Source: Thermoplasmatota archaeon (GTDB lineage Archaea > Thermoplasmatota > E2 > DHVEG-1). Taken from it: DNA of 24,000 nt. This document shows positions 7,112-15,524 of the stretch, one piece after another. Within the stretch, counting starts at the first letter, position 1; each line of letters opens with the position of its first letter. Location of the stretch: positions 31,492-55,491 of the forward strand of contig JAWABU010000006.1 in the NCBI GenBank assembly GCA_038884455.1. Direction: 5' to 3'. The notes below the pieces were generated by a model that had not been told where the DNA came from, searched no databases, and saw only the letters and a list, made by a program, of their open reading frames with translations. The position numbers were made by a program, and so were the translations under genes.

Positions 7112-8581
7112 ATGGGGAAAAATATGAAGGACAAACAAATCATCTCTTTTGTAGGAGTTGTTGTCATTACTTGGTGTTTTCTTTTTTCATTACCAAGTAA
7201 TGCTGAAAAGATATTCATAAACCAATCAGTAAAACAAAATAGTACACCACCACCATCATCGCAGCTTACAGATAGTCTTCCATATACTGGCCGCGTTCGA
7301 ATTTACATTGTTGAGCCAGTATCTCGGTGGAAGATGGCAAATCAAGAATACTATCATTTTGGTTTCTTAGGATTTGCATATAATAATCAGATTTCAATCA
7401 ACTATGGTGAAACGTTTGATCAGACAATTACCTGGGATGGTGACTCTCTTGTAAACGAGAATAACATCATGGTTATCGCTGCGGTCTTCAACCCAGAACG
7501 ATACCCTGGATATGCACGACCGCCATCACAGAATCCTTTTGATGCATACTATGTCGATGCAACTGCTGGTGCTCGGCCAGGTCAAACAGGGTATAACCGA
7601 ATTCAAGAAAATTTCACCCATACGGTGCTCGTTGAAGAGAGTACAGCAACCTGGTGTGGCTACTGTCCCTCAATGGCAGACGTATTGTATAGTATTTATC
7701 AATCGGGTGAGTATCCATACTATTTTGTTGCGCTTGTAGACGATAAAAACACACAGGCAGCTCAGCGAAACGATGAGTTCAACTTGTATGGTTTCCCAAC
7801 AGCGTTTTTCGATGGCGGATATAAAGTGCTTGTCGGCGGTCAATCAAGTGATACAACCGCTCGAAATTACATTAAAAACTCAGGGAAACGAAACGTTCAT
7901 GAACTCAATCTGAGTGTTTCAGTAGCATGGCTTGGCAATGGTGATTTATCGATTCATTTCACAATTACGAACAATGAGATGATTAATCCTCCTGAGACAC
8001 CAAGCGCTCCAACCGGTCCCACACAAGGATATTCCAATATTGAGTATACTTATACTGCAGTGACCACTGATCCGAACAATGACAAGATCTTGTATAAGTT
8101 TGACTGGGGTGATGGAACGTCGTCTGATTGGATCGGACCAAAAACATCAGGAGAACCTATAACTGCAAAACACACATGGACTGCTGATGGGGCGTATCAA
8201 GTAAAAGTGAAAGCAAAAGATGTCGGTGGCGGCGGCTATGAAACAAGTTGGTCAGCACCTCTCTCTGTTCAGATACAGCCCGCTCAGTTTAATATTGTGG
8301 TTGCCGGTGGTAAATCGATAGTTACCGCAACGATTACTAATGCCGGTGCGAGTACCTTGCCATCAGTTGAGTGGCGTATTTCGGTAAAAGGCGGGATTTT
8401 CGGTCGAATCGACATTGTATCCACAGGAACCCTCATAAATCTTGCACCGAACACACCGACCGAGGTTTCGACAGATAAAACCTTGTTTGGCGTTGGGAAA
8501 CTTGCTATCACCGTGACTGCTGATACAACCGTGAAAGAATTCAATGGTTTTATTTTTGGACCGTTTATCATCATTCGATAA
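7112..8581 (+). CDS. exported thioredoxin-fold (CxxC) protein with a PKD domain and a C-terminal CARDB/Ig-like beta domain
   Basis: 489 aa with a signal-like N-terminus (IISFVGVVVITWCFLFSLPSNA). The thioredoxin-like core reads VLVEESTATWCGYCP (CxxC at 7655-7666) with a cis-Pro-loop-like YGFPTAFFDGG. The PKD signature is YKFDWGDGTSSDW...YQVKVKAKD (about 8000-8275). The last ~98 aa (8283-8578) align with the C-terminus of the C25 peptidase encoded at 9674-11839. Confidence 0.75.
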   Translation: MGKNMKDKQIISFVGVVVITWCFLFSLPSNAEKIFINQSVKQNSTPPPSSQLTDSLPYTGRVRIYIVEPVSRWKMANQEYYHFGFLGFAYNNQISINYGETFDQTITWDGDSLVNENNIMVIAAVFNPERYPGYARPPSQNPFDAYYVDATAGARPGQTGYNRIQENFTHTVLVEESTATWCGYCPSMADVLYSIYQSGEYPYYFVALVDDKNTQAAQRNDEFNLYGFPTAFFDGGYKVLVGGQSSDTTARNYIKNSGKRNVHELNLSVSVAWLGNGDLSIHFTITNNEMINPPETPSAPTGPTQGYSNIEYTYTAVTTDPNNDKILYKFDWGDGTSSDWIGPKTSGEPITAKHTWTADGAYQVKVKAKDVGGGGYETSWSAPLSVQIQPAQFNIVVAGGKSIVTATITNAGASTLPSVEWRISVKGGIFGRIDIVSTGTLINLAPNTPTEVSTDKTLFGVGKLAITVTADTTVKEFNGFIFGPFIIIR

Positions 8582-8635
8582 AAATGAGCTAACACTCTCT
8601 TCGCTATGATCAAAGAAAAAAGAGAGGATAGAGAC

Positions 8636-12990: not shown

Positions 12991-13088
12991 AAATACTATT
13001 TAAGTTTTTCCAAAAAAAATTTATATACTTCGAAATATAAATAAATATATACTCAAAGGTTTTTATACAAAATCTTAGGGGGAAAAAT

Positions 13089-15524
13089 ATGAAAAAGATA
13101 CTACCATTGATCTTAGTAGGAATGTTAGTTTTCGCAGGACTAGGTGTTCGTGCGAATATTGATGAAACAAGCAAAAATTTATGTGTGACTATGGTCACAT
13201 CACAACCGAATGTTGTTGATAAGGGTGAATATATCGTACTCGAACTACCAGAAACAACATCATATGTGTTAGATGCAGGCAAACCTATGATGCCAAAACA
13301 GGTTCATGTGTTCGATATCCCCTTTGGATCAACTAATATTCAAGTAAGCTGCGTCCCAACAGATATTTCAGAAATGTATGTCACAAAAGAAATCATCCCA
13401 TCACCACAACCACTTCCGTTACTTCCTGATGTTGAGGTAGGAAATGAGGATATCAAAGATATGCAAGTTTATACTAGTTCTGAGTTATATCCATCATGTT
13501 GGTATGACTATCAAACAACCGCAGGTCTCGATGGTTCAGGAAATCATGTTATTCATGTTGCAATTCATACCTATCCAGTTCGATATGCACCACTGCTTGG
13601 AAAAATAGTAACTTCAAAAACAATGACTATCTCGGTTTCGTATACACCACCAAACACACCAATTCTATTTGGTGATACCTATGATTTAGTGATTATTGCA
13701 CCCAGTCGTTTCTCACGTGCCTTGCAGCCATTGGTGAAACATAAAAACGATATGGGTATGAGGACTATATTCAAAACAACTGAATGGATTTACACGAAAT
13801 ATCAAGGTTTTGACAAACCTGAGAAAATTAAACATTTCATTAAAGATGCCCTTGGCCCAGAAGGATTAAACTGGGGTATACGGTATGTTCTGCTCGTCGG
13901 CGGATTGAAAAATCATCTATTTACCAATGACCGAGAGAACAATAGTACCGGAACAAAAGCATGGCACGTCCCAGTTCGTTATACGAATTTATACGAATCA
14001 TATAACTCCCATCAGCCACCGAGCAGTTCAAATGTCTATGATCCAGGGTATGTCAGCGATCTCTACTATGCTGATGTTTACAATGCGAACGGAAGTTTTT
14101 CAACATGGGATACCAACAAGGACAGAACCTATGCTGTATGGGGAAAAAGCGGTTTTGCAAGAGATACACTTGACCTTGATCCCGATGTTGCAGTTGGTCG
14201 ACTTGCCTGTCGAAACACACTTGAGGTAAAACAAGTTGTTAAAAAAATTATAACGTATGAAAAGAAAACTGCGGGTCAGGAGTGGTTCAAAAAAATGGTT
14301 GTTATTGCTGGCGATGGCTTCCAAGATCAAGCAGATTTTGGGATAAGCTGGGATGTAAATTCTCTTCCTACGGGACGATACACGATTTATGCACAGAGTA
14401 AAAATATTGATGATGTTGCTGGCCCGGTAGATATCATTAACGTTACTGTCGATAAATCAGTTGCATCAAAAGTAACATTTAATGAAGATGATCATCTGAA
14501 AATTGATAAATATCCTGCGCTTCCCATCGCAGAAATCACTTCTCCATCTGAAGGAGATATTCTTGGAAATACTAATGTTGACAAAATACCAGAAAAGGCA
14601 TACATCGGTTCTCGATGGGCAAAAATAAGATACATAAATGGTGTTATGGAGATAAAAGGTAAATCCTATGATCCGCGACCTGATGGGGTTGTTACTACAC
14701 TTCATGTTGTTATCAAGGCAAGTAATGGTTCTGTTGTGTTTGAAGCAGAAAAAAGTTTTGAAATGTATTTCGAAGATGAACATGAAACAAAACTTGCCAT
14801 GAGTTATATGCCTAATGATTTTACAAAAGAAGTGTTATGGTCATCGAATGGTAAATTTACCAGTCAGGATGATGTTATTTCTGCACTAAGCGCAGGATCA
14901 GGATTTGTATATTTCTCAGGACATGGCAGTCCCCGAGTCTGGGCAAATCATTACCCTGGTATTCCTGGTGGTCGGGCAAATTCAAGTATTGTCGGTCTGA
15001 GTAGTTTTGATATCAAAAAAGCACCCTACTTCCCAATGAGTAAATTAACCAATGGCAACAAACTCCCAGTTTTACTTGTTGGTGGTTGTCATAACAGCCA
15101 GTTTAACATTTCATTGATTAAAACACTGAATCTCACAGACAAATTTGGCCCTTTTGCTGCAAGTGACATTGCTGGATATTGGACACATGGAGTTCCAACC
15201 TATGAAGCATGGAGCTGGGCACCAGTACAATCATCAAAAGGAGGTGCGATTGCAACAATTGGCTGTACCGGTCTTGGATATGGATATCTTGGAGTTGGAT
15301 GCACTCAGGGTCTAGGTGGTTGGATTAACCCGCAATTTTTCAAGATCACCGGACAAAAAATCGATGCTAGTCAACCGTTGATCCTTGGTGACATCTACCG
15401 GCAGACGCTCTCAAATTACATTACAACCTTCCCAGTTAAAAGAGAGTTAGAAGATTGCAAAACCGTCCAAGAGTGGATTTTACTTGGTGATCCAAGTCTT
15501 ATGATTGGTGGCTACACCACATAA
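13089..15524 (+). CDS. exported gingipain-like cysteine peptidase (C25 family), second divergent paralog
   Basis: 811 aa with GGGGGA 5 nt upstream of the ATG. The signal-like N-terminus is MKKILPLILVGMLVFAGLGVRA. It has the propeptide-like motif GKPMMPK and the C25 core YVLLVGGLKNH. The candidate dyad is FSGHGSP (His codon 14922-14924) and LLVGGCHNSQF (Cys codon 15087-15089), followed by LLGDPSL. It lacks the C-terminal domain seen in the 9674 paralog and has a ~150-aa insert between the N-terminal and catalytic parts. Confidence 0.8.
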   Translation: MKKILPLILVGMLVFAGLGVRANIDETSKNLCVTMVTSQPNVVDKGEYIVLELPETTSYVLDAGKPMMPKQVHVFDIPFGSTNIQVSCVPTDISEMYVTKEIIPSPQPLPLLPDVEVGNEDIKDMQVYTSSELYPSCWYDYQTTAGLDGSGNHVIHVAIHTYPVRYAPLLGKIVTSKTMTISVSYTPPNTPILFGDTYDLVIIAPSRFSRALQPLVKHKNDMGMRTIFKTTEWIYTKYQGFDKPEKIKHFIKDALGPEGLNWGIRYVLLVGGLKNHLFTNDRENNSTGTKAWHVPVRYTNLYESYNSHQPPSSSNVYDPGYVSDLYYADVYNANGSFSTWDTNKDRTYAVWGKSGFARDTLDLDPDVAVGRLACRNTLEVKQVVKKIITYEKKTAGQEWFKKMVVIAGDGFQDQADFGISWDVNSLPTGRYTIYAQSKNIDDVAGPVDIINVTVDKSVASKVTFNEDDHLKIDKYPALPIAEITSPSEGDILGNTNVDKIPEKAYIGSRWAKIRYINGVMEIKGKSYDPRPDGVVTTLHVVIKASNGSVVFEAEKSFEMYFEDEHETKLAMSYMPNDFTKEVLWSSNGKFTSQDDVISALSAGSGFVYFSGHGSPRVWANHYPGIPGGRANSSIVGLSSFDIKKAPYFPMSKLTNGNKLPVLLVGGCHNSQFNISLIKTLNLTDKFGPFAASDIAGYWTHGVPTYEAWSWAPVQSSKGGAIATIGCTGLGYGYLGVGCTQGLGGWINPQFFKITGQKIDASQPLILGDIYRQTLSNYITTFPVKRELEDCKTVQEWILLGDPSLMIGGYTT

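Follow-up and report, generated by a model that had tools for sequence, protein, structure and literature searches.

A 24,000-nt stretch of DNA from a Thermoplasmatota archaeon (GCA_038884455.1, contig JAWABU010000006.1, positions 31,492–55,491 of the forward strand; the window) holds six plus-strand open reading frames (ORFs) in a row, g1 to g6, which encode an exported thioredoxin-like protein (g1), a small membrane-anchored protein (g2), a cytoplasmic C_GCAxxG_C_C protein (g3), two predicted secreted C25, or gingipain-type, cysteine peptidases (g4 and g6) and, between these, a flippase-like membrane protein (g5). The close relatives, among them SM1-50 and M9B1D, are metagenome-assembled genomes (MAGs) that bear the label Thermoplasmatota or Thermoplasmatales, and gingipain-type genes have been reported for Thermoprofundales (MBG-D, for Marine Benthic Group D), these two MAGs among them (PMC6461988). 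An initial annotation of the window proposed that the redox-type proteins serve the neighbouring peptidases as a module dedicated to maturation or redox maintenance. Here, we find that the linkage of g1, g2 and g3 is genuine and that their tie to the peptidases is suggestive, not statistically secure; at present the module is a lead for experiment and not a discovery. Thermoprofundales are among the most abundant archaea of marine sediments and are thought to use detrital protein by means of secreted cysteine peptidases, and extracellular thiol proteases are readily inactivated by oxidation or by metals. A real accessory module would offer a handle on the maturation and protection of secreted thiol proteases in these uncultured archaea, and an initial clue to the uncharacterised C_GCAxxG_C_C family.

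Gene content of the locus

The ORF listing agrees with the initial annotation on six consecutive plus-strand genes, on their coordinates and on the tight spacing of the first four: g1 (7112–8581, 489 amino acids (aa)), g2 (8606–9088, 160 aa), g3 (9104–9619, 171 aa), g4 (9659–11839, 726 aa), g5 (11969–12949, 326 aa) and g6 (13089–15524, 811 aa) are separated by 24, 15, 39, 129 and 139 nt, in that order. The upper spacer figure of 54 nt given earlier comes from beginning g4 at its second methionine. Flanking genes are archaeal (LonB-type Lon, pycB/pycA, birA and NucS). Signals read from the plus strand suggest a probable division of the six genes into three or more transcription units. A TATA-box-like element, TTATAAATA (7080–7088), follows a purine-rich stretch about 28 nt 5' of the g1 start and is a candidate promoter of a g1–g4 transcript, and an AT-rich TATA-like stretch between g3 and g4 (9623–9636) is a possible internal promoter for g4. 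An oligo-T run 3' of g4 (11913–11918) is a candidate archaeal terminator, and AT-rich, TATA-like sequence comes between it and g5. In the g5–g6 spacer (12984–13027) a run of seven T (12984–12990) followed by TTTATATA (13020–13027) is a candidate terminator with a separate g6 promoter.

Profile searches recovered all of the domains named in the initial annotation, the thioredoxin match of g1 and the CarboxypepD_reg match of g2 falling below their cut-offs. A hydrophobicity scan revealed the hydrophobic, signal-like N-termini that had been claimed for g1 and both peptidases, another in g2, and none in g3. In g1 the Thioredoxin profile PF00085 (E=2e-4, 21.8 bits, cut-off 23.5; Pfam) matches around WCGYC, placing the CxxC at the active-site position of the family. 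The protein consists of a two-part thioredoxin-like module (residues ~51–290, with WCGYC at 181–185), a PKD domain (~293–381; Pfam E=4e-5) and a generic C-terminal beta domain (~397–473), which is CARDB-like at E=0.008 (Pfam). Its PKD domain matches PDB entry 4xed at E=1e-22; the entry is annotated as peptidase M14 (carboxypeptidase A), and we take it to be a PKD domain encoded in a single-cell genome of MBG-D. The thioredoxin part weakly matches TXNDC5, PDI and thioredoxins in the PDB (E 0.0015–0.1).

The thioredoxin-like module of g1 defines a multi-copy exported family, with three exported copies in the source genome, where a fourth tagged ORF has just 94 aa; relatives have as many as 17 search matches, at about two per gene. 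Its CxxC is retained in most members, including all 10 that adjoin a C25 gene. Its halves (g1 residues ~55–160 and 165–290) are reversed in the two other exported paralogues of the source genome (C8:15905–17383 and C5:48156–48917) and in many relatives, which amounts to a domain swap or circular permutation inside one family. Four g1-family thioredoxin-like genes lie within ~9 kb of one complete genome (L176, G008:C1:852000–871999), a local expansion. The initial annotation had also pointed to a C-terminal domain shared by g1 and g4. The two copies show homology (67 aa at 34% identity, E=2e-11), and neither is the nearest relative of the other; this domain of ~95 aa ends 23–28 ORFs of the source genome, where PKD domains occur in 23–29. 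Since the domain is a genome-wide module found on 23 or more proteins, we rule out its sharing as specific evidence for a g1–g4 connection.

For g2, which has an N-terminal membrane anchor, a beta-rich domain and a C-terminal helix, the CarboxypepD_reg match (E=1e-4, 23.1 bits, cut-off 32.3) is tentative, and the protein is better described as a small family of its own with a CxC/H/C signature. The CxC (C61, C63), H80 and C92 are invariant. The AlphaFold2 (AF2) model consists of beta strands with a predicted local distance difference test (pLDDT) score of 57. The gene is single copy in the source genome and was found in 34/118 genomes of the order.

The g3 protein belongs to PF09719, C_GCAxxG_C_C (E=3.6e-19, 69.4 bits, cut-off 27), and scores below the cut-off for TIGR01909 (41.1 against 47.4 bits). 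Across 18 orthologues its residues C25, C63 (in TCGALxGG), C113, C146 and H142 do not vary, and C28 is nearly invariant; the five conserved cysteines together with the histidine point to redox chemistry, or to the binding of a metal or cluster. The AF2 model is all-alpha (pLDDT 91.7), with no solved relative in the PDB by profile or by fold (best fold E=0.69, template modelling score at most 0.29), and the literature on GCAxxG proteins gives no function. The gene is single copy in the source genome, and 18/24 genomes of the family have orthologues.

Linkage of g1, g2 and g3

Several genomes have g1 and g2 side by side, and in one species the two are fused into a single ORF of 539 aa (L081:3385–5004, plus strand, which equals L171:7396–9015, minus strand, in G053). 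The two records come from two collections and have identical gene orders and lengths, so they apparently represent the same species. The fusion protein has a signal peptide, a thioredoxin-like module with CGYC (52–292), a PKD domain (297–384) and a g2 domain (413–522, E=1.5e-42). Directly after it comes g3, with a 4-nt overlap, and another g1-type gene is found three genes beyond. The fusion identifies g2 as a likely partner of g1 and places the g2 domain outside the cell; it is the strongest evidence that g1 and g2 act together.

The link between g2 and g3 is one of gene order. Among the g2-anchored loci, g3 lies directly 3' of g2 in 18/28, with a median spacer of 11 nt (15 pairs), and the two are found together between at least three different sets of flanking genes. 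Phyletic co-occurrence of the two genes is weak, g3 being present in 6/8 genomes with g2 and in 14/33 without it. Remnants of g2, with in-frame stops or as fragments, precede g3 in L167 and L164, with further matches in G103, G109, G118, G120 and G012; the g2 gene appears to be decaying repeatedly. In a third g2 context (G045, G078 and G096) the gene stands divergent to a C25 gene of the g6 type and is the first in an array of Dph6, GATase, S15 peptidase, FG-GAP and C1 genes, so that g2 is again near cysteine peptidases in a setting where housekeeping and secretome genes mix freely.

Cysteine peptidases next to g3 and to the g1 family

We surveyed g3 in 19 loci from relatives and 80 genome-collection loci, together with a g3 tree. 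In the clade of the window (20 rows) the order is pycB–pycA–birA–cupin(−)–[g1]–[g2]–g3–g4–g5–ABC permease(−). A g4 homologue (47–64% identity) follows g3 in 15/80 loci at a median spacer of 40 nt, and a g4-type sequence does so in 9 further g2-anchored loci; g5 comes next in 11 or more, g2 precedes g3 in ~15, and g1 is present in just a few. A sister clade (31 rows) has the order HAD–PAC2–g3, with a median PAC2–g3 spacer of 12 nt, followed in 10 loci by a C1 papain-family peptidase of ~570 aa with a right-handed, NosD-like beta-helix domain (L040:6217–9263, minus strand; L079, L084, L097, L098, L101, L103, L107, L113 and L117). In the remaining loci of this clade the slot after g3 holds AbiE toxin–antitoxin, radical SAM, Fic or PQQ propeller genes. 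Overall, a cysteine peptidase occupies the position directly 3' of g3 in 26/74 loci, against 5/503 genes at other positions. The peptidase is of the C25 family in one clade and papain-like C1 in the other, so the peak amounts to 2–3 independent events, with a binomial p of 0.001–0.12 depending on the event number and the base rate. That g3 recurs immediately upstream of cysteine peptidases belonging to two unrelated clans is the lead most worth following.

We did not find g3 in the C25-rich genomes G003, G004, G008, G035 and G039 (completeness 89–98%), and g3 homologues outside the order (Nitrososphaeria, Syntrophomonadaceae) have no peptidase link, their neighbours being DUF998, a HEPN/nucleotidyltransferase pair, DNA ligase, POR, LysE and an esterase.

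An independent sample was provided by 78 loci around 85 g1-family genes away from g3. C25 genes occupy 10/146 of the immediately flanking positions and 2/408 of the positions at distance 2–5 (Fisher p=5e-5), in ~8 independent pairs of mixed orientation, all with CxxC. The C25 neighbour rate is 6.8% for the g1 family, 3.0% for secreted-protein control genes and 1.07% as the genome-wide base. This adjacency is suggestive, not secure.

Peptidases g4 and g6 and membrane protein g5

Both peptidases match Peptidase_C25 (PF01364; cut-off 23), g4 at E=1.3e-55 (189.6 bits) and g6 at E=1.2e-49 (170 bits). The candidate His/Cys dyads proposed earlier, H479/C509 in g4 and H612/C667 in g6, align with those of the other C25 paralogues of the source genome (G-H and (G/A)-C motifs; family alignment). 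Signal-like N-termini and intact dyads are present in both, which are predicted secreted peptidases. They belong to different subfamilies. The N-terminal region of g4 contains Propeptide_C25 (PF08126; E=4e-12, 46.1 bits, cut-off 22), as expected of a zymogen, and its generic C-terminal beta domain lies at ~631–701; g6 has no Pfam propeptide match, only weak similarity to the g4 pro-region (E=7.7e-4), and lacks the generic C-terminal domain. The two proteins have 8–12 cysteines, and g4 has no match to PDB sequences at E<0.001. Compared with the gingipains RgpB and Kgp of Porphyromonas gingivalis and the gingipain-like peptidases of MBG-D, g4 and g6 share the PF01364 domain with its dyad, signal-like N-termini and added beta-sandwich modules, and g4 shares the N-terminal propeptide. 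Unlike the gingipains, they are encoded by an archaeon without an outer membrane or type IX secretion system (T9SS), the C-terminal module of g4 is a lineage-specific CARDB-like domain and not the T9SS C-terminal domain, and g6 carries an insert of ~190 aa within its catalytic domain.

C25 genes are abundant, with 18 matches in the 1.7-Mb source genome and 4–38 across members of the family (C1 matches number 1–16), so secreted C25 peptidases are expected here and are not new. Those of the g4 type (50–60% identity) are multi-copy, usually away from g3 and mostly without a g5 neighbour. At its position, g6 is present in the source genome only; relatives have an opposite-strand ABC permease after g5. 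The g5 protein exceeds the cut-offs of PF03706, LPG_synthase_TM (UPF0104; E=1.1e-35, 124 against 33.4 bits), and of the flippase-like TIGR00374 (85.9 against 43.2). Many hydrophobic 19-mers mark it as polytopic, and it has a single cysteine. Like the flippase domain of MprF it is a polytopic member of these families, but it has no synthase domain, scores 17.6 against the cut-off of 600 for the full MprF model, and is present independently of g4: g3 is followed directly by g5 in L060, L120, L139, L143 and L145.

Mosaic structure and redox context

The initial annotation called for a comparison of gene neighbourhoods, and in this the pairs g1–g2, g2–g3 and g3–cysteine peptidase recur, whereas the six-gene set is not conserved. 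No relative examined has all six genes together, the closest being L066 (g1–g2–g3–g4–g5) and G003 (g1–g2–C25–C25–g5), and each of g1 to g4 is missing in some relative. Thus g3–g4–g5 occurs without g1 or g2 (for example L051, L061 and L072), g2–g3–g5 without g4 (L060, L120, L139, L143 and L145), and g1–g2–g3 without g4 or g5 (L095). In G003 (91% complete), the pycBA–birA–cupin backbone is combined with g1, g2, two g4-type C25 genes and g5 (L131:2485–10425, minus strand, contig C42), and g3 was not found genome-wide.

Extracytoplasmic thiol reduction generally runs from cytoplasmic thioredoxin through CcdA or DsbD to exported thioredoxin-like proteins of the TlpA/ResA type. As an exported thioredoxin-fold CxxC protein, g1 resembles the last of these. 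The cluster itself contains no membrane electron conduit, and the sole CcdA/DsbD_TM match of the genome is a fusion of 449 aa with an N-terminal redoxin/AhpC-TSA domain (L175:1333–2682, minus strand, contig C61). This fusion probably supplies exported thioredoxin-like proteins with reducing power and could feed g1. Differences from the known pathway are that the conduit lies outside the cluster, that g3 is a C_GCAxxG_C_C protein without a fold relative in the PDB and not a thioredoxin, and that the g1 module is two-part, has its halves swapped in paralogues and is fused to PKD and surface modules. We ruled out g5 as a DsbD-like conduit, as it has one cysteine and is retained without g4.

The oxidative-folding catalysts PDI and DsbA carry CGHC or CPHC motifs. 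To these g1 is similar in its CGYC and its weak PDI and TXNDC5 matches, and the cysteines of g4 and g6 could form disulfides; unlike the settings of those enzymes, no DsbB- or VKOR-type reoxidase was found in the source genome, the organism is an anaerobe, and the motifs differ considerably across the g1 family. In staphopain–staphostatin operons the staphostatin, a beta-barrel inhibitor, is encoded downstream of the protease. The placement of a small cytoplasmic g3 beside a secreted cysteine peptidase, recurring with two clans, is reminiscent of these operons, but g3 is all-alpha, rich in cysteine and upstream of the peptidase, and its family extends across anaerobes with other members lacking a peptidase link. 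A staphostatin-like inhibitor was ruled out on the all-alpha fold. We found no link in the literature between gingipains and a dedicated thiol–disulfide oxidoreductase.

Interpretation of the locus

We favour, with moderate confidence, the reading that the locus is a mosaic and no dedicated six-gene system, and that in it g4 and g6 are ordinary C25 peptidases, g5 belongs to the backbone, g6 is a local addition, and g1, g2 and g3 form a linked trio for which a co-located zymogen is a plausible, non-exclusive client. A conserved housekeeping backbone of lon, pycB, pycA, birA and cupin genes, extending to the ABC permease, would host the mosaic in a Thermoprofundales (MBG-D) archaeon living largely on extracellular protein. 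The two peptidases would be two of ~18 secreted C25 zymogens that most likely degrade detrital protein outside the cell, with g6 a lineage-specific addition under independent transcription and g5 a flippase-like backbone gene independent of g4. The evidence for functional coupling lies in g1–g2–g3. Within this trio, g1 may act as a CxxC oxidoreductase of thioredoxin fold that is displayed on the surface and belongs to a multi-copy exported family, with g2 as its partner, a membrane-anchored extracytoplasmic beta domain with a Cys-x-Cys/His/Cys site, and g3 as a cytoplasmic five-cysteine helical protein in close translational coupling with g2. We infer that g1 and g2 could form an extracytoplasmic thiol–disulfide or thiolate–metal pair that acts on exported cysteine-containing proteins, with reducing power from the CcdA–redoxin fusion encoded elsewhere in the genome, and that the co-located C25 zymogen would be a facultative client.

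Several observations weigh against this mosaic reading. The peak of cysteine peptidases directly after g3 is stronger than it predicts, and g3 itself may be tied to peptidases. With the low-confidence model of g2, the redox or metal site is deduced from conserved residues alone, and the CxxC variants of the g1 family span glutaredoxin- or thioredoxin-like to DsbA- or PDI-like motifs, which bears on the direction of any redox reaction. Co-transcription of g1 to g4 is presumed solely from their spacing, and a TATA-like stretch is present inside the g3–g4 spacer. Lastly, the excess of C25 neighbours of the g1 family over secreted controls is 2.4-fold and not significant (p=0.12), and a generic grouping of secretome genes might account for much of this excess. 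The comparison initially called for, whether CxxC and C25 genes co-occur more often than chance, shows an excess over the genome base rate and no significant one over secreted controls.

Further readings compete with the mosaic. That g1–g2–g3 is a module dedicated to the maturation or redox maintenance of the neighbouring peptidases, with g3 inside the cell and g1 and g2 outside, acting in thiol upkeep or in the folding and activation of the zymogens, we regard as unlikely. C25 and other cysteine peptidases do require a reduced active-site thiol, which speaks for it, as do the tight spacing of g1 to g4, the post-g3 peptidase peak with its two unrelated clans, the ~8 independent g1-family pairs with C25 genes, and the occurrence of g2 near C25 genes in three ways (with g3 in between, adjacent in G003, and divergent in G045, G078 and G096). 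However, only this locus among the ~18 C25 ORFs of the source genome has such neighbours, each component can be lost individually, g3 was not found in the five C25-rich genomes, g2 is confined to 34/118 genomes, the PAC2 clade holds varied genes in the post-g3 slot, g3 homologues of the outgroup sit among unrelated genes, and the juxtaposition of g3 and peptidase reduces to the few events counted above. The cluster also lacks a membrane electron conduit, and a cytoplasmic g3 can have no contact with an extracellular thiol. The initial proposal is partly borne out, by the linkage of the trio and the peptidase peak, with dispensable components, a cytoplasmic g3 and a conduit outside the cluster on the other side. 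A broader form of the proposal, in which g1–g2–g3 would be a previously undescribed trans-envelope thiol or metal–thiolate relay of Thermoprofundales that services secreted C25 and C1 peptidases, is more doubtful still. If true, it would be the first functional context for the C_GCAxxG_C_C family and would explain active extracellular thiol proteases in anaerobic sediment archaea. The arrangement may instead be pure coincidence, with secreted-peptidase genes interspersed among housekeeping genes in compact genomes and the links inherited as synteny, which we consider about as unlikely as the dedicated module. Coding is dense and tight arrays of unrelated genes occur, as in the Dph6–GATase array headed by g2 or the closely spaced PAC2–g3 pair; the pycBA–birA–cupin…g3–g4–g5 block is conserved as a whole, so that conservation by itself is no evidence of function; and secreted controls have C25 neighbours at a rate not significantly below that of the g1 family. 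Coincidence nevertheless leaves the g1::g2 fusion and the movement of the g2–g3 pair between flanks hard to explain without functional coupling, and the peaks at the immediately adjacent position (directly after g3, and at distance 1 against 2–5 for the g1 family) are absent for control genes.

PorU, the sortase of the T9SS, is a C25-family enzyme and is the top NCBIfam match of both g4 and g6, which raises the idea that a g4-type peptidase and g5 form a sorting machine that cleaves the C-terminal beta domain and attaches 20 or more proteins to a lipid or surface polymer. The adjacency of g4 and g5 in 11 or more loci and the ~95-aa domain terminating 23–28 ORFs would fit. Against this, the PorU model NF033707 scores 54.5 bits for g4 and 66.8 for g6 with a cut-off of 420, which is generic C25 similarity only, g5 remains when g4 is lost, g4-type enzymes are multi-copy and mostly have no g5 beside them, and the g4 propeptide is gingipain-type, typical of degradative zymogens. 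We consider a sorting machine very improbable.

Further observations

A family B DNA polymerase gene lies directly 5' of g3 in L036:5167–9384 (minus strand) and L052:2096–4975 (plus strand), and the L036 copy has an intein with a LAGLIDADG domain. Elsewhere in the window, a minus-strand ORF of 537 aa (16960–18573) has a marginal C2-domain match and no other annotation, and homologues with 30–40% identity occur near g3 in L044, L059 and L111. A class I Glu/Gln tRNA synthetase gene (20468–22147, minus strand; Pfam) lies directly after g3 in relatives such as L095, so the segment of the window from 9659 to 20217 is variable relative to those genomes.

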